Shown here: one piece after another, positions 3,868-62,169 of the stretch
Layout: each line of letters starts with the position of its first letter
Numbering within the stretch: the first letter of the stretch is position 1
Origin: Escherichia virus KFS-EC
Sequence record: MH560358
Direction: 5' to 3' (one strand)
Length of the DNA stretch: 64,000 nt
Translations under genes and position numbers: made by a program
The notes under the pieces: model-generated
Database searches by the model: none
Seen by the model: only the letters and a program-made list of their open reading frames with translations
What the model was told of the DNA's origin: nothing

Positions 3868-4063
3868 ACTTTCCCTCCAAAAATTCTTTCATCAAATAGT
3901 CTATCGTTGCTCTGTGTTCTGGTGTGTTTGTTATCTCTGCTAACTTATTCAGAGATTCAATAGTGATCCGGTTGGCTTCTTCCATAGTCTCAACGACCAT
4001 TGGCACAATCTTTTTATTGTTGTACACAAATGCAATATAACCGCCTTCTGGATATTCTTTCAT
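3860..4063 (-). CDS. hypothetical protein (67 aa)
   Basis: ATG 2 nt after gp52 stop, AAGAAGGG SD; track start is TTG. Confidence 0.45.
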   Translation of the reverse strand: MKEYPEGGYIAFVYNNKKIVPMVVETMEEANRITIESLNKLAEITNTPEHRATIDYLMKEFLEGKYD

Positions 4064-4065
4064 AA

Positions 4066-5412
4066 TCAACCCTTCTTAAGTTCTTTAAGATCTTTCTTAT
4101 ATTCCTTCATTGCGGTCGTCTTTGTCCAATACTCATATTCACTATGATGTTTATCGGCATCTTTGACCAGTCGATCATACTCTTCTTGAGTAACGCTATA
4201 TAATGGCATAGAAACTAGCTTATCGGCGTATGGACGCAGTTTTTCATGTCCATTTATGGATTGCATTACCTCGGCCTTTTTCTTGCCCTGTAGCTCGATT
4301 TCGCCCTTAATTACGCGATCGATAAATTCGGCTTTAGCCATTGCATAATTGTATGCTTCCAGCGTTTCCGCTTGCATCAATTCAATGCGTTTATCGACAT
4401 ACCCTAATCGGATTTCGACGAATCGACGGATCAGATCGCTCGCTTTCTCGAATACTTCTACTAAACCACGTTCGTTAACTACTACGATATTCTGGGCTAC
4501 TAACTGCGTTAGTTTAAAATCCTTCATGATTTGCTCATGTCGAGCGGATTCATCTTCGCTTTTGAAATAATCGCGTTTCAGTGTTACTTCAAATCTGAAT
4601 CCGTCCTTAGAGCAACGGTCATTATACGATACAATCAGATCTTTTTCTTCCAGTGCATCCAGTACCGCTACATATTCTTCACGGTCGAACTTATAAGGAA
4701 CTTCTGATATTGTCAGTTTAGTCTTGCCGTTTAGTTCATATGTACCCTCAAGAATCACACCATCGCGATCATCTCGCGGGATAACTTTACCTGTGAATTT
4801 CGGGAATTGAACACTAGGTTCTTTATCCAGTTTTCCGGCAAGTGCTAGCTCTGTGCATTCAATAAGGCTTTCCAGTGAATGCGGTAAAATGTCAGTTTTA
4901 TACCCTGTAGCAATACCACTAATACCATTAGCCAATACCATTGGCACAACTGGCAAGTAGAAAGCTGGCGGGATGTGTTCCAGATCTTCGTGCTTAGGTG
5001 CGCAATTCATATCTTTATAGATTTTAAAGAAGTTTTCATGCACACGAGCAAAGATATAACGTGCCGCACCTGCTTTCTGGACTAAACGCGATCCGAAGTT
5101 ACCTTGACCGTCAAGCAGTGGAGTATTATTGCTCCATGTATTCGCCATGAGTGATCCGGCTTCTACGGCATTAGTTTCCCCGTGGTGATAACCCAACTCA
5201 GCAACACCAGATCCAATATCTGCCATCTTACGGAATTTCTTACGGTCGCCTTTACTCTTTTGCAAAGCACATTCCATAACAAAGCGTTGCACTGGTTTAA
5301 GTCCGTCTACCAATTGAGGAATCCCGCGTTCCTCGGCAGAATAGATCGCATATTCCTTAGCTTCATTATGTACAATGCTTTCAAGGCTGCGGTAAGTAAC
5401 TGATTTATTCAT
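4066..5412 (-). CDS. 52: DNA topoisomerase II medium subunit (GyrA-like), gp52
   Basis: strong similarity to T4 gp52 as recalled (PVQRFV, GYHHGE, LLDGQGNFGS motifs); start set at internal ATG, track start is GTG. Confidence 0.9.
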   Translation of the reverse strand: MNKSVTYRSLESIVHNEAKEYAIYSAEERGIPQLVDGLKPVQRFVMECALQKSKGDRKKFRKMADIGSGVAELGYHHGETNAVEAGSLMANTWSNNTPLLDGQGNFGSRLVQKAGAARYIFARVHENFFKIYKDMNCAPKHEDLEHIPPAFYLPVVPMVLANGISGIATGYKTDILPHSLESLIECTELALAGKLDKEPSVQFPKFTGKVIPRDDRDGVILEGTYELNGKTKLTISEVPYKFDREEYVAVLDALEEKDLIVSYNDRCSKDGFRFEVTLKRDYFKSEDESARHEQIMKDFKLTQLVAQNIVVVNERGLVEVFEKASDLIRRFVEIRLGYVDKRIELMQAETLEAYNYAMAKAEFIDRVIKGEIELQGKKKAEVMQSINGHEKLRPYADKLVSMPLYSVTQEEYDRLVKDADKHHSEYEYWTKTTAMKEYKKDLKELKKG

Positions 5413-56917: not shown

Positions 56918-57108
56918 AGATGACTCCAATATAATCGACATTTACATTTAGGGCAATGCGGTTCTTTAATATAATACCCGTCTGTCTTTGGAACACTAAC
57001 AGGAGCGGTTTTTATATTGTATTCAATGAAACAACGAAAACAAGTTACGTTTTCTACAGACTGACGTTTCACCCAATCACCGGAATATAGATCATTTTTA
57101 TTTGTCAT
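56914..57108 (-). CDS. zinc-ribbon small protein (64 aa)
   Basis: CFRC...CPKCKC; internal ATG. Confidence 0.45.
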   Translation of the reverse strand: MTNKNDLYSGDWVKRQSVENVTCFRCFIEYNIKTAPVSVPKTDGYYIKEPHCPKCKCRLYWSHL

Positions 57109-57553
57109 ATTCAACCACCACAATGTTAATGTCTGGAGTAGCAATATTAATGATCTCTTCTACACATTCCCACTCAAGGCCACCGATACCGCAACCGATT
57201 TTAGGAATATAGAAAGGCTGTATAGCACCCTCAAAAACATCATTGAGAGACTCAAATCCTTTCAGGATAGCACCATATTCAGCATTTGGACCCGGTCGGA
57301 ATTGGGTATAGAGATTCACCCCGCACCAGTTATAACCATTAACTTGATGCGTCCAGACACTAAACCCACCCAGCTTTTCGACCTTACCGCGAGAAGTTTG
57401 CTTGTCAATCTCTAACGCTTGCGGGAACTCTTTCGCGATCTTCGCAGCAATACCAGCGCCCATAGTATGAAAACAATTACAACCATGAATTAAATGACCG
57501 TTTCCTTGTTTAAACAGGGCGATGAGATCGCCCTTTACAGTATCAATAATCAT
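57098..57553 (-). CDS. macro-domain protein (ADP-ribose binding/processing)
   Basis: GDLIALFKQGNGHLIHGCNCFHTMGAGIAAKI and IPKIGCGIGGL align with the macro-domain pattern GDIT...VNAAN...GGGV..AI and ...STGVYG; GAGGT SD. Confidence 0.6.
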   Translation of the reverse strand: MIIDTVKGDLIALFKQGNGHLIHGCNCFHTMGAGIAAKIAKEFPQALEIDKQTSRGKVEKLGGFSVWTHQVNGYNWCGVNLYTQFRPGPNAEYGAILKGFESLNDVFEGAIQPFYIPKIGCGIGGLEWECVEEIINIATPDINIVVVEYDK

Positions 57554-57568
57554 AATATAAACCTCACA

Positions 57569-57928
57569 TTAGTCACGGGAAGACAACCCAGCCATAAAAC
57601 GGCTTAACAGTGTGTCGCGATAAGCAAAGCATAATTGCTTATCAGGGGCAGTATCACACAGGTTACGTTTTGTTTTAGCAAAGCTGGCAATACTCAGATC
57701 CCACGCTCGATTTTTTCGTTTTTCGTCTCGACCTTGTTTGTATGCTTCATCAAGTTCGAGCGCGATAAAATCACTACACATGTTATCATCATCACAGAAA
57801 GTTTTAATGATCTTTTTGTTGATCTCAAATCCTTTGTATTCGAACTTTGGATAAGGGCGCTCATTACTAGCAAGCGCACCAGCAGAGAACATCATAGCAA
57901 TCATAGCAATTATTGTCAACTTTTTCAT
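57569..57928 (-). CDS. secreted protein (119 aa) with signal peptide
   Basis: MKKLTIIAMIAMMFSAGALA signal peptide; four Cys. Confidence 0.55.
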   Translation of the reverse strand: MKKLTIIAMIAMMFSAGALASNERPYPKFEYKGFEINKKIIKTFCDDDNMCSDFIALELDEAYKQGRDEKRKNRAWDLSIASFAKTKRNLCDTAPDKQLCFAYRDTLLSRFMAGLSSRD

Positions 57929-57935
57929 ATATTCC

Positions 57936-58526
57936 TCAATAGCGTTTAGTCTTAAGAATGCCTTTACTCTTTAGATGGTTAGCCTTTTTTAGTACGTCAT
58001 CAGCATAACCTAATCCGGCTTTATAGTTCCATCCAGCATTGTAAGAAGCTAGCGCGAGTCTGATATTACCGTTTCGAATATCCAGCCAGTATGCTAACTC
58101 ATCCATCGCGTAGAATGCAGAAACCTCGCGATTCATGATAAAGTTGATAGTCTGGCGATCACTCATTTTAACACCGCGCTTTGCATTTTTCGCTTTCACC
58201 GTTTTAAGGTAATTTTGAAATAATCCATAAGCATGATGATTTTTCTTTGGTGCTAAGTTTGCACCCGCGCTTGATTCTTGCCATGCGATACCCGCCAGGA
58301 TGTGACCTAAACCCTTTCCGTTATAGCGAATATTCGGATGGTACTTTTTCAACTTACCGCTTTTCTCGAATTGCTCGCCGTATTGATAGGCGAAATGTAA
58401 ATTATCTAGTTGGTGTGCTGTAAAGTTGTCTATCGGCGCTTTTTTGATCGGTGCGCTAGTCGATGCGTGTGTAGCACCAACGGCTAGTGACAGACTCAAT
58501 ACTATCGCTTTTAGAACTTTTAACAT
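57936..58526 (-). CDS. secreted lytic transglycosylase-like protein (SLT domain)
   Basis: signal peptide MLKVLKAIVLSLSLAVGATHA; SLT-like motifs GIAWQESS, AYGLFQ, ASYNAG; AGGAGA SD. Confidence 0.6.
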   Translation of the reverse strand: MLKVLKAIVLSLSLAVGATHASTSAPIKKAPIDNFTAHQLDNLHFAYQYGEQFEKSGKLKKYHPNIRYNGKGLGHILAGIAWQESSAGANLAPKKNHHAYGLFQNYLKTVKAKNAKRGVKMSDRQTINFIMNREVSAFYAMDELAYWLDIRNGNIRLALASYNAGWNYKAGLGYADDVLKKANHLKSKGILKTKRY

Positions 58527-58611: not shown

Positions 58612-59034
58612 TTATTGGTCTACCTTCAAAACAACAGCCGACATTTTACCCGCCAGTCGTTTTGGATTCTCTATAATCATTCGGCAGCATAGACCGTGAT
58701 ATGGCTTACCATCTTCGATTAGATCTACTGTCATCCCGATCCACATGTTACCGTCAGTAATTTCTAATCGATTAGGTCGGTCTTCCATTTTCAGGAAGTC
58801 GAAGATCTCCGGCAAACGAGTTTCTATCTTATTGAATAGTTCCATTGTCTTATGTTCATCGATATGACGATCGGTTAGACGGTCGATCATATGCGGACTA
58901 AAGCGAATGAAAATATACTCACCATAACCATCATTCAAGCACTTTTCTTTGATCTGCGCATTGGTTTTGCGCATTTCGGTTTCGAAGAATCTACGCAGCT
59001 TACTACGGCGAACATGTACGTTAATTGTTTCCAT
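58612..59034 (-). CDS. regB: RegB site-specific endoribonuclease
   Basis: matches T4 RegB as recalled (IRR.KLRR.FE.E, RLEITDGN.W.G.TV, CRM.I.N..RL.GK); start at internal ATG with AAAGGA SD. Confidence 0.85.
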   Translation of the reverse strand: METINVHVRRSKLRRFFETEMRKTNAQIKEKCLNDGYGEYIFIRFSPHMIDRLTDRHIDEHKTMELFNKIETRLPEIFDFLKMEDRPNRLEITDGNMWIGMTVDLIEDGKPYHGLCCRMIIENPKRLAGKMSAVVLKVDQ

Positions 59035-59038
59035 TTTA

Positions 59039-59374
59039 TTATCCTTTCTTAAACAAATTGCGAAGCCAGTATACAAACGGGATTTCTTTAAACTTGAATT
59101 TCTCTATAGTTAATTCTTTAGTAGCAAGATGAATACCATAAGCATCATGTGTCACGATATGCCATTTTCTATAGTCCAAATGTGAACAACCGTCTGGATC
59201 TAGGTTAATAAGAGTTTCTCGCTCACTAGGATTATTTTTCCACAATTTTGTAATAGGATCGCACATAATTCGACCTAGCGTACCATGAATAATCTCACAA
59301 CGGTAAAGTTTTCCAGCAGTGAGATAGGCGCACCCGTCATAGTCGGTATAAACAAACACTTCTTTAACACTCAT
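59039..59374 (-). CDS. DGCSHL-repeat small protein (111 aa)
   Basis: two copies of DG-C-(A/S)-(Y/H)-L motif; paralog of 59677-59871; promoter upstream. Confidence 0.5.
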   Translation of the reverse strand: MSVKEVFVYTDYDGCAYLTAGKLYRCEIIHGTLGRIMCDPITKLWKNNPSERETLINLDPDGCSHLDYRKWHIVTHDAYGIHLATKELTIEKFKFKEIPFVYWLRNLFKKG

Positions 59375-59434
59375 TTTAATAATCCTTTGTTGTTTCGATG
59401 GGGGTATATTACTACCCCCGATCATGTATGTCAA

Positions 59435-59680
59435 CTACTTTTTCAAGATTTTTTTGATTGCATTCCAAAGACCTTTATTTCCAGGTTGTTTTGGTTCTTC
59501 GATCAGTGTCCATGTTCGACCGTCTAAGTGTGCACAATTTTTAAGGCAAATAAAAATCTAGTGTCCCTTATCATCACGGATATAACCACTATTCGCAAAT
59601 CTTTCATGTGGTGTATATTCATACAGTGTATTAGGTGTAATATACTTGCGGTTACTATAAGGTGTCATCACATACATCAT
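59435..59680 (-). pseudogene. paralog of DGCSHL family interrupted by in-frame amber (TAG) codon at 59558-59560
   Basis: hand translation: 40 codons, TAG, then 40 codons (…GYIRDDKGH*IFICLKNCAHLDGRTWTLI…) still aligning with neighbouring paralogs; ATGA-coupled start. Confidence 0.45.
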
Positions 59681-59871
59681 GGTACTAACTCCCAACGATC
59701 ACCGCGAAGATGAGAACATCCACCATCAAGAAGTATTGTAATACGATAACCTATATCATCTTTGATGTAACCGATTGTCGGTGGATTTTCGTCGTCTCGT
59801 GCCGGGGTAAAATCATACATCTTTCCGGGCGTAATATCTTGTCCTTTATTGCTATTTGTATAAACTTGCAT
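59677..59871 (-). CDS. DGCSHL-repeat small protein (64 aa)
   Basis: ATG with AGGAGA SD; LDGGCSHLRGDRW motif. Confidence 0.5.
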   Translation of the reverse strand: MQVYTNSNKGQDITPGKMYDFTPARDDENPPTIGYIKDDIGYRITILLDGGCSHLRGDRWELVP

Positions 59872-59892: not shown

Positions 59893-60591
59893 CTAACCAC
59901 GGGTATAGTGTTCCAGAACAACTGTCAGATGAATATATTCTAATAGATCTTTCCAAAAGTCAACATCTGGTTCTTCCGGCATACCGTTTTTCTTTGCCTC
60001 TTCACGCGCGAGTTTAACACGCTCGTAGAGATCTTTCAATTCTTCCCGCACATTATCAAAGGTTCTTTCTCCTAACTTACACGCTAAAATAGAAGAACGT
60101 CGCTCGAGCGGGAATTGTAGATCACCTGTCTGATAGATTTCAAGTAGCTGATAACCAACACGCAGAGCATGAGAAAGATCTTTCCAGTTACTGAAATACT
60201 TTTCAGATTTAGCTACCTGTTTCTTGAGATAACCAGACAAACCCCACATCCCAACATGATAGAATTTATCGCGATGTGTTCGGATGTATTCCCATTCTCT
60301 GGAGGATTCAATCAACATGTTACTAGGAGCGTGCACCATATCAATAGCGCCGATATCACCTTTACATGCCAGATTGATAAACCGTTTTAGACTGAACATA
60401 TTAACGTCAATGTCGTCTTTGGTGTTCTTGATACCTTGACCGCTAGTGCTTTGGTCATAGTGTTCTTTCATCGATCCTAAGATAATTTCTTTCGCAGTCG
60501 GAACAAAGATACCACGATAATCTTTATCGGAATTTTCAGTATCAAGGCCGTATAAGTGAGATCCGAAAACCATTTTAACCATTGTATGCAT
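59893..60591 (-). CDS. Pol-beta-superfamily nucleotidyltransferase-like protein
   Basis: N-terminal GS...D.D signature (FGSHLYGLDTENSDKDYRG) typical of minimal nucleotidyltransferase fold, followed by helical domain; GAGGG SD. Confidence 0.5.
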   Translation of the reverse strand: MHTMVKMVFGSHLYGLDTENSDKDYRGIFVPTAKEIILGSMKEHYDQSTSGQGIKNTKDDIDVNMFSLKRFINLACKGDIGAIDMVHAPSNMLIESSREWEYIRTHRDKFYHVGMWGLSGYLKKQVAKSEKYFSNWKDLSHALRVGYQLLEIYQTGDLQFPLERRSSILACKLGERTFDNVREELKDLYERVKLAREEAKKNGMPEEPDVDFWKDLLEYIHLTVVLEHYTRG

Positions 60592-60643
60592 AATTAAACC
60601 CTCAGTTGATTAAGAGATTGCATCATATCATCATAAAACGAAA

Positions 60644-60668
60644 AAGCCAACCCTTTTCGGATTGGCTT
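60644..60668 (-). terminator. rho-independent terminator after grcA-like gene
   Basis: AAGCCAA-loop-UUGGCUU hairpin followed by U-rich tract. Confidence 0.55.
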
Positions 60669-60674
60669 AAAAAT

Positions 60675-61091
60675 TTACATTGCTTCCGTAAAGGTGCGCG
60701 AAATAACATCACGTTGTTGGTCTGGAGTCAGACTATTGAATCTTACGGCATATCCGCTAACGCGAATGGTTAGTTGCGGATACTTATCAGGATTAGCAAC
60801 CGCATCAAGAAGAAGATCGCGACTCATCACATTGATATTCGCGTGCTGGCCTCCTTCGACAACCGGAGCACCATTATCTACAATCACCGGACGGAAGCTA
60901 GTTGTGTGCAGTGCCAGCGAATCGACGTCTTCTGCGGTGATCACATGGTCTTCTGCGAAAGTTTTACTAACAATTACTTTAGCGCCGATCAGTGCTTTCG
61001 GTTCGGATACCAGAATCATAGGCGCGAAGTGTCCACCAATAATAGTACCTTTATGCTCACCTTTCATGATTTGAATTGCTTTAAATTCCAT
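60675..61091 (-). CDS. autonomous glycyl radical cofactor (GrcA/YfiD homolog)
   Basis: C-terminus [33 protein letters not shown] nearly identical to the PFL/GrcA glycyl radical motif. Confidence 0.85.
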
Positions 61092-61226: not shown

Positions 61227-61718
61227 TTAGTTGATACCTAAGCCAATGAAAATAGGTTGGTCTTCTACATTACCCATCCCAACACTAAGTCGATTCAATT
61301 CTAAAAACTGCAATACGCTGTCAGTAAATCCGCGCATGGTAGTATCTAGGATAAAAATTGTTTTGTCAAGACTACGACCTCGCCATGTGATCGGATTCAG
61401 GAAAGTTCGGATAGACGTACAATCTACATTTGAAATATTTACATTTTCACCACGACCGCGATCTCGGATCGTTTTGGCATGTTCCCGCGTTGTTGAAACG
61501 ATAAAGACACTATAGCCTTTTCGCGTATAATGGTCATATAACTTGATTGTAGCGTCTGTATGCCCTGTCTGACGGCCTAAATTGATTGAGACGATGGAAT
61601 CTAGGTCATCAGCAAAATTTCTTCGCTTACGGCGTTCTATGATGCCATTTACGGCAGAAATACACGCAGCATAAATCAAATCTTTACTTTCTAATTCTAA
61701 ATCAATGTCAATATTCAT
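61227..61718 (-). CDS. hypothetical protein (163 aa)
   Basis: ATG with GGAGA SD. Confidence 0.55.
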   Translation of the reverse strand: MNIDIDLELESKDLIYAACISAVNGIIERRKRRNFADDLDSIVSINLGRQTGHTDATIKLYDHYTRKGYSVFIVSTTREHAKTIRDRGRGENVNISNVDCTSIRTFLNPITWRGRSLDKTIFILDTTMRGFTDSVLQFLELNRLSVGMGNVEDQPIFIGLGIN

Positions 61719-61779: not shown

Positions 61780-62169
61780 TTATTTTGGATCTGGGTATTT
61801 GCTGTGTGGTAGCTGAAAATGAACACCGTCTTTAAACGATACCCAATCCCCACCCCATTCAACAGGAACACCCAATTCTCGACCAGCTTGTTTAAATGCA
61901 TCAGCGATCATGCGGTAGTATTTCATGTTCCATGTATCCTTATCTTTCGGATACGCTACAACGTCAACCGCGAAACCGTGAAGATGACGAGATTTCATAG
62001 TCTTAGATTTACCTTCCGCAACATATTTCTTTTGCGTTTCTAGACTACGCACACCTTCCGTAATGCCAAAATCGACCGGAGTCAGTTCTAATGCACGATG
62101 AACGACTTTTACCAGATCAGGATGCACACCAACAAGCCGATCTTTGCTTCTTTGAGATAATTTAAACAT
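61780..62169 (-). CDS. M15-family peptidoglycan peptidase (L-alanyl-D-glutamate peptidase-like), candidate endolysin
   Basis: zinc-ligand pattern SRHLHGFAVDV ... DGVHFQL typical of VanY/T5-endolysin-type M15 peptidases; AAAGGGGG SD. Confidence 0.65.
   Translation of the reverse strand: MFKLSQRSKDRLVGVHPDLVKVVHRALELTPVDFGITEGVRSLETQKKYVAEGKSKTMKSRHLHGFAVDVVAYPKDKDTWNMKYYRMIADAFKQAGRELGVPVEWGGDWVSFKDGVHFQLPHSKYPDPK

Follow-up and report, generated by a model that had tools for sequence, protein, structure and literature searches.

The subject of this analysis is an open reading frame (ORF) of 232 amino acids on the minus strand of a 64,000-nucleotide stretch of Escherichia virus KFS-EC (sequence record MH560358), which is referred to below as the window. 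The ORF starts with ATG in the ORF list of the window and was initially described, from the letters alone, as a polymerase beta (Pol-beta)-type nucleotidyltransferase of unknown substrate that could not be placed among the T4 core genes. The last point had to be revised. The encoded protein is a homolog of T4 NrdC.11 (approximately 45% identity and a tblastn E-value of ~1e-30 against the T4-type proteins of ~336 amino acids, e.g., RB59_098), and the gene is so named in the phages Phi1 and JSE. Over the 6 kb around the ORF the window shares 96-98% identity with 57 phage records, without exception members of the RB49/Phi1/JSE group (Krischvirus), and on the basis of this identity it is assigned to Krischvirus. 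The protein itself is 99.6% identical to its counterpart in Krischvirus RB49. The gene of Phi1, phi1p098, is annotated as “nrdC.11, NrdC.11 conserved hypothetical protein”; in JSE the gene is annotated nrdC.11 and the RefSeq record carries the label “nucleotidyltransferase”. In a comparison of T4-like genomes from 2006 the nrdC.11 orthologs were listed as nucleotidyltransferases of COG3541 and vs.6 as a protein with a glycyl-radical domain (PMC1524935). Judged by these similarities the ORF is the Krischvirus ortholog of the T4 accessory gene nrdC.11, which was already annotated and is not an orphan.

Homologs were detected in 1616 of 50,697 phage records, and all of the 57 records with at least 95% protein identity (the RB49 group) retain the full-length gene. 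The ratio of nonsynonymous to synonymous substitution rates (dN/dS) is approximately 0.04 in comparison to Phi1 (0.0018/0.043; seven nucleotide differences and one amino acid difference) and approximately 0.17 in comparison to a relative with 57% identity (0.42/2.4). The gene is under purifying selection. Many NrdC.11 homologs in GenBank and UniRef are labeled “thioredoxin”, “glutaredoxin (nrdC)” or even “HNH homing endonuclease”. Such mislabels appear to be propagated errors which go back to the name nrdC.11 and the adjoining mobD; a Pfam scan of the NrdC.11 protein found no thioredoxin domain.

Family membership and predicted fold

The protein matches the Pfam family RlaP (PF10127, “RNA repair pathway DNA polymerase beta family”) with 54.4 bits at a gathering score of 23 (E = 1.9e-14), and the match is collinear, with residues 7-191 lying on model positions 24-198. 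A short relative with 57% identity (P0002) reaches 64 bits on the same model (positions 23-229 of 249). PHROG 388 (“nucleotidyltransferase”) was matched with E = 2e-79, and a search of 1.84 billion proteins yielded 3615 cluster representatives at E ≤ 1e-3. No family model of NCBIfam matches the protein. RlaP is the only family found by Pfam, the family SMODS of the cGAS/DncV-like nucleotidyltransferases (CD-NTases) being absent, and among the models of PADLOC no nucleotidyltransferase or CD-NTase was matched, the only hit being a non-significant one to CARF/HEPN at E = 0.035. An identity as CD-NTase or known defense protein was rejected on these results.

The segment FGSHLYGLDTENSDKDYRG comprises residues 9-27 of the protein (numbering from Met1). 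The Pol-beta signature consists of G10-S11 and D22-K-D24, and a third carboxylate, D62, is located on the next conserved strand (“DDIDVNMF”). Among 150 diverse homologs the residues G10, S11, S21, D22, D24, D60, D62, D84, K137, H141, and R144 are invariant or conserved to at least 90%, and thus include the catalytic acidic residues D22, D24, and D62 that the sequence-only reading had called for. In the comparison with six canonical bacterial RlaPs the invariant positions are G10, S21, D22, D24, D62, L74, P89, K137, and R144; S11 is almost invariant. The conservation of these residues, the family matches and the purifying selection show that the signature is real and far above chance. On the strength of these alignments the NrdC.11 protein almost certainly belongs to the RlaP family, and it is very probably catalytically active.

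An AlphaFold2 (AF2) model was built from the alignment of 150 sequences and reached a mean predicted local distance difference test score (pLDDT) of 96.7 and a predicted template modeling score (pTM) of 0.92. In the nucleotidyltransferase domain the model has strands at residues 2-9, 23-30, 44-48, and 61-67, and the GS loop precedes a helix at 11-14; the helical domain is composed of helices at 116-131, 136-155, 165-172, 178-201, and 210-230. Together with the PF10127 match and the conserved G10, S11, D22, D24, and D62, the model bears out the Pol-beta-type fold with a GS...D.D signature that had been read from the sequence. The C-terminal helical domain predicted at the same time is also present, but it comprises approximately 115 amino acids (residues 116-230) instead of 150. 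The modeled two-domain layout matches the published description of the crystal structure of PfRlaP, in which a cleft lies between an N-terminal nucleotidyltransferase and a C-terminal helical domain (bioRxiv 10.64898/2025.12.29.696909).

No sequence relative was found in the PDB, neither with the single protein nor with the 150-sequence profile. The structure search with Foldseek returned nucleotidyltransferases as the only neighbors among solved structures, and all of them are remote. The best E-values were obtained for entries of ANT(4') (6un8, E = 1.2e-5, TM-score ~0.38), AAD(9) and LinB. The Hailong protein HalB (9dbj), with TM-scores of 0.47-0.50, is the closest solved fold for the short form encoded here as well as for the long T4-type form.

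Table 1. Features at the nrdC.11 locus (positions in the window; neighboring genes are named as homologs of T4 genes, identified by ORF list, Pfam, PHROG, and Phi1 annotation)
Feature	Position	Strand	Basis or remark
tk.4, macro domain	57098..57553		
vs	57569..57928		
vs.1, SLT domain	57936..58526		
regB, endoribonuclease	58612..59076		
Three small ORFs, phrog_6261 paralogs	59039..59871	minus	
nrdC.11 coding sequence, 232 amino acids, short-form RlaP-family (PF10127) nucleotidyltransferase	59893..60591	minus	ORF call, Pfam, RB49/Phi1/JSE annotation
C-terminal helical domain, ~residues 116-230	59902..60246	minus	carries K137, R144, H141
R144	60160..60162	minus	invariant
K137	60181..60183	minus	invariant
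Deletion junction, residues ~S129-N135, “SEKYFSN”	60187..60207	minus	alignments, insert lengths, rooted tree
N-terminal Pol-beta nucleotidyltransferase alpha/beta domain, ~residues 1-112	60256..60591	minus	AF2 secondary structure, alignments
D62	60406..60408	minus	invariant in comparison with canonical RlaPs
D24	60520..60522	minus	invariant in comparison with canonical RlaPs
D22	60526..60528	minus	invariant in comparison with canonical RlaPs
G10-S11	60559..60564	minus	conserved in alignments
Shine-Dalgarno GAGGG, 7 nt 5' of the nrdC.11 ATG	60599..60603	minus	read from sequence
Candidate sigma-70-like promoter, TTGGCT, 17-nt spacer, TG-TATGAT	60622..60650	minus	consensus match only, 9/12
Intrinsic-terminator-like hairpin and T-run between vs.6 and nrdC.11	60644..60668	minus	10-bp stem, 5 G-C pairs, T-rich tail
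vs.6 (“grcA-like”)	60675..61091	minus	
vs.8	61227..61718		
M15 endolysin	61780..62169		

Insert loss and relocation of nrdC.11 in Krischvirus

The KFS-EC protein and T4 NrdC.11 have the GS…DxD…D motifs, the WKxxSHAxR helix and the Pfam family in common. T4-type NrdC.11 proteins match the KFS-EC protein in two pieces which span 93-96% of the latter, and they differ from it by a block of approximately 100 residues between “KQAxKYGIKGSR” and “DWKAxSHAxR”. This insert separates the first and the second helix of the helical domain, and in a model of the T4-type protein it forms an alpha/beta subdomain at residues ~133-235. An insert of 83-130 amino acids was found in 145 of the 150 aligned sequences, which were mostly top cluster representatives; the remaining five have 6-15 amino acids at this place, namely the KFS-EC protein (six residues) and the sequences P0002, P0139, P0152, and P0224. 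Canonical RlaPs (255-271 amino acids) lack the block as well, and the PF10127 model aligns collinearly along the short forms, whereas in the T4 form its alignment is confined to the N-terminal part.

A neighbor-joining tree rooted on eight canonical RlaPs was calculated with 100 bootstrap replicates. In this tree the KFS-EC protein and P0002 are nested deep among the long forms, with P0121 (327 amino acids) as sister; their clade was basal in none of the 100 replicates and the short forms were never monophyletic. The absence of the insert is therefore a secondary loss and not an ancestral state, and at least three independent losses have to be assumed. Residual sequences, “EKYFS” in the KFS-EC protein and “ESYSNAR” in P0002, align with the motif “E(E)YGxRAR” that the insert carries distally. 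The Krischvirus enzyme thus has the overall length and, in the model, the layout of canonical RlaPs because a subdomain of approximately 100 amino acids has been lost.

The location of the gene differs from that in T4-type phages, too. In the latter (RB59) nrdC.11 lies between nrdC.10 and mobD, and vs.6 belongs to a different cluster, whereas in Krischvirus this synteny is not kept and nrdC.11 is situated between vs.6 and the homolog of Phi1 ORF097. No gene annotated as nrdC.10 is present beside nrdC.11 at the Krischvirus location. The T4-type nrdC.10 itself (L002, 6126..7094) gave weak matches to AAA and STAND NTPases, all below the Pfam cut-offs. On the contig of P0002 the order is M15 peptidase, vs.8, vs.6, HNH endonuclease and short RlaP; since this relative of 57% identity has an equal gene order, the short form and the new location must be old in the lineage. 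The Krischvirus lineage carries a secondarily minimized and relocated nrdC.11, which we count as a new point.

The spacer between vs.6 and nrdC.11 (60592..60674) carries no gene in the window. In JSE the same spacer contains a homing endonuclease gene (L072, 3608..4138) and in a diverged relative (L006) a gene for a NUMOD4/HNH endonuclease (3951..4547); in T4-type phages nrdC.11 adjoins the homing endonuclease gene mobD and in Sinorhizobium phage phiN3 another homing endonuclease. The repeated occurrence of nrdC.11 beside mobile endonucleases may explain its relocation. 

The neighbor vs.6 had been termed grcA-like from the sequence, and this holds. In the homolog (138 amino acids) a glycyl-radical domain (PF01228, E = 5e-15) occupies the C-terminal part; the GrcA model TIGR04365 is matched with 127 bits, the cut-off being 170, and does not cover the first ~36 residues. 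By its sequence the homolog resembles a “spare part” that the phage supplies for a glycyl-radical enzyme. Genomes of this group also encode NrdD and NrdG. A functional link between nrdC.11 and the GrcA-like gene was rejected. The two are separated by the terminator-like hairpin, whose tail is overlapped by the promoter candidate upstream of nrdC.11, an endonuclease gene is inserted between them in JSE and L006, and they are not adjacent in T4-type phages; the adjacency is therefore incidental.

The phrog_6261 paralogs between nrdC.11 and regB, homologs of Phi1 ORF095, ORF096, and ORF097, have a common motif “GYI.DD.G…GC(S/A)HL.G..W”. In the middle paralog (ORF096 homolog, 59435..59680, minus strand) an in-frame TAG is present at 59558..59560, where Phi1 has CAG (Gln). 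The stop codon, a nonsense (amber) mutation of recent origin in this phage, shortens the product to 40 amino acids, the remaining frame being intact.

RNA-end repair genes beside relatives of NrdC.11

Two RlaPs encoded in rtcB operons of Pseudomonas fluorescens and P. aeruginosa were characterized in a preprint of December 2025 (bioRxiv 10.64898/2025.12.29.696909). According to this work they extend the 3'-OH of RNA by one or two nucleoside monophosphates (NMPs), deoxynucleoside monophosphates (dNMPs) being accepted as well, and leave DNA and protein unmodified. Mn2+ is the preferred ion and the 5' half of nicked tRNA the favored substrate, and RlaP raises the aminoacylation of a repaired tRNA from which one nucleotide of the anticodon loop had been lost. 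In total RNA the bacterial enzymes also label rRNA-sized RNA and full-length tRNA, and they show little specificity for the nucleoside triphosphate (NTP). T4 NrdC.11 was assigned to cluster 5 of the RlaP family, without an assigned function (bioRxiv 10.64898/2025.12.29.696909). A survey of jumbo phages had found that the distribution of RlaP mirrors that of RNA ligases and predicted that RlaP restores, prior to ligation, nucleotides taken by anticodon nucleases of the RloC type (PMC7824862). RloC is an anticodon nuclease that excises a nucleotide (PMC2610378). The KFS-EC protein passes the same family HMM (Hidden Markov Model) as the bacterial RlaPs and in its AF2 model shows the nucleotidyltransferase-plus-helical layout at 232 amino acids, close to their length, and the three catalytic Asp, K137, and R144 are invariant between them. 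It differs from the canonical RlaPs in forming a separate clade and in being located outside an RNA-ligase operon.

The genes rnlA and pseT were not found within the 64-kb window. Phi1, which is 96.4% identical over the region at the nucleotide level, encodes pseT and rnlA at 127.7-130.6 kb; in the sections of Phi1 that were inspected, no gene bears the annotation rnlB. A second RlaP paralog in the phage was considered and rejected, as none is present in the window or the searched Phi1 loci and each record has a single place among the matches listed.

For a broader comparison one genome per prokaryotic species was scanned with a 10-sequence alignment as query, which yielded 64 loci with relatives. 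These linkage results are independent of the published neighborhood analyses. RtcB is encoded within the flank at nine of the 64 loci, which are of bacterial origin or from metagenome-assembled genomes (MAGs), and at approximately 16 a full-length canonical RlaP (175-228 bits) follows immediately downstream of an NrdC.11-like long form. The order RtcB, NrdC.11-like protein and canonical RlaP was observed at L023 (5709..9740), L037 (6510..9778), and L068 (6035..9751). Domains of PNKP ligase, Hen1, and RtcA are further represented among the neighbors. A contig of 4 kb (L015, 80..3617) carries contiguous NrdC.11-like, PseT-like, and RnlA-like genes as a compact three-gene cassette; it is binned as a Bathyarchaeota MAG and is probably of phage origin. 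At L042 the NrdC.11-like gene is followed downstream, at a distance of ~1 kb, by a PseT-like gene, and the nrdC.11 of Sinorhizobium phage phiN3 is flanked on either side by a gene for an RNA ligase. The NrdC.11 clade itself, beyond the canonical RlaPs, is linked to enzymes of RNA-end repair. Since NrdC.11-like genes occur beside canonical RlaPs, the two are probably not redundant, which suggests distinct activities. We count the tandem pairs of NrdC.11-like and canonical RlaP genes by rtcB in bacteria as a second new point.

Proposed function and competing explanations

As the best explanation overall we moderately favor that Krischvirus NrdC.11 is a secondarily shortened RlaP-type RNA 3'-nucleotidyltransferase. 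By analogy to the characterized members the acceptor is probably RNA, and one or two nucleotides may be added, as elsewhere in the RlaP family; whether this would serve RNA repair and counter-defense is, in our estimation, evenly balanced. The substrate left open by the sequence-only reading is thereby narrowed through the family membership, given that the Pseudomonas members act on RNA 3'-OH ends. Among the roles which that reading had listed, modification of a macromolecule, here RNA, fits best, and the synthesis of a second messenger finds no match in Pfam or PADLOC.

In the mechanism we propose, D22, D24, and D62 would bind two divalent metal ions, for which Mn2+ is preferred in the characterized bacterial RlaPs, and the NTP would be positioned in the interdomain cleft by the G10-S11 loop and by K137, H141, and R144 of the helical domain. 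In a template-independent reaction the enzyme would then extend the 3'-OH of a broken RNA by one or two NMPs. The targets may be tRNAs cut by a host anticodon nuclease which has also removed a nucleotide in the manner of RloC. Phage PseT would first remove the 2',3'-cyclic or 3'-phosphate and phosphorylate the 5'-OH, NrdC.11 would subsequently add back the lost nucleotide or nucleotides, and Rnl1 would seal the full-length RNA. The classical tRNA-repair counter-defense of T4 would thereby be extended.

Several observations weigh against this explanation. The assayed RlaPs are two Pseudomonas enzymes outside the NrdC.11 clade, and the KFS-EC protein shares just 13-20% identity with canonical RlaPs. 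In the window nrdC.11 is not located beside any RNA-repair gene, and many bacterial NrdC.11-like genes adjoin a canonical RlaP, suggesting different jobs. The loss of the insert may have altered the choice of substrate, and the closest solved fold, HalB, makes oligo-dA and does not repair RNA. Finally, T4 nrdC.11 is deletable in the laboratory (PMC9825161), and no phenotype has been reported.

An RNA 3'-end nucleotidyltransferase may also act on other ends, either by tailing fragments made by RegB and processed by PseT, so as to steer mRNA decay, or by patching the 3'-CCA of tRNAs. We regard this as unlikely, yet worth weighing. It would agree with the move of Krischvirus nrdC.11 into the vs/regB cluster, ~0.8 kb upstream of regB, with its probable co-transcription with the three small ORFs, with the broad labeling and low NTP specificity of bacterial RlaPs and with the loss of a subdomain on which substrate specificity might depend. 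However, the proximity to regB is lineage-specific, the T4-type gene being found beside nrdC.10 and mobD, elsewhere the clade is recurrently partnered by RNA ligases and polynucleotide kinase (PNK) and not by RNases, and the addition of one or two nucleotides would be a poor toehold for decay. A quite different possibility, to which we give very little credence, is the nucleotidylation of a metabolite or an antibiotic-like small molecule in the way of ANT(4')/kanamycin or lincosamide nucleotidyltransferases. These enzymes gave the best Foldseek E-values and have the same nucleotidyltransferase-plus-helical architecture, but TM-scores are only 0.28-0.44 (0.36-0.42 for ANT(4')) and identities 12-13% (12% for ANT(4')), the acceptor of ANT(4') being a small molecule and not RNA. 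Family-level sequence matches to the aminoglycoside and lincosamide enzymes (ANT, LinB) were found neither in Pfam nor in NCBIfam, the tested members of PF10127 act on RNA, and the neighborhoods of the relatives point to RNA ligases.

Slightly less credence still is due to the synthesis of a nucleotide or oligonucleotide signal or decoy, be it a CD-NTase-like second messenger or an oligo-dA that is made without template like that of HalB and interferes with a host defense. In its narrower version the whole NrdC.11 clade would be a HalB-like oligonucleotide synthase that supplies a decoy and not a repair enzyme; it could, for example, replenish the oligo-dA that holds a Hailong-type DNA-gated channel closed, with the insert-less enzyme as its minimal version. 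This version, which we consider hardly credible, derives from the result that no solved fold comes closer than HalB to either the short or the long form. HalB (9dbh/9dbi/9dbj) is 12-15% identical to the KFS-EC protein, with no detectable sequence relationship, and is a protein-primed oligo-dA synthase paired with the HalA channel in host defense; no HalA-like partner is present here. The lack of a PADLOC match to nucleotidyltransferases or CD-NTases and the sole Pfam match to RlaP also speak against a signal or decoy, and so do the characterized RlaPs, which stop at one or two nucleotides and refuse DNA acceptors. That nrdC.11 is a decaying, non-functional remnant after a deletion of ~100 codons might be suspected from the absence of residues that 145 of 150 aligned relatives have and from the dispensability of the T4 gene, but is extremely improbable: The catalytic and nucleotide-binding residues are all preserved, the AF2 model is compact and highly confident without an exposed break, dN/dS is 0.04-0.17, and a syntenic relative at 57% identity has kept the short form. 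Canonical active RlaPs also lack the insert, which has moreover been lost independently at least three times.

Antitoxins of the minimal nucleotidyltransferase (MNT) type are small stand-alone nucleotidyltransferases of ~100-140 amino acids which are encoded beside a HEPN toxin gene. A role as MNT antitoxin of a HEPN-MNT module was rejected for NrdC.11, as the protein has 232 amino acids with a fused helical domain and neither flanking gene encodes a HEPN protein.

The enzyme of the RB49 group is a naturally minimized NrdC.11, from which a clade-specific subdomain of ~100 amino acids proved dispensable and has repeatedly been lost, and its small size makes the short NrdC.11 convenient for biochemical and crystallographic work. 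The idea that nucleotides taken by RloC-type nucleases are restored has already been published for the RlaP family. If the proposal of an RNA 3'-nucleotidyltransferase in tRNA repair is true, NrdC.11 would be a missing third component of the PseT/Rnl1 tRNA-repair counter-defense and would explain how phages could cope with nucleases that have been proposed to defeat simple religation.

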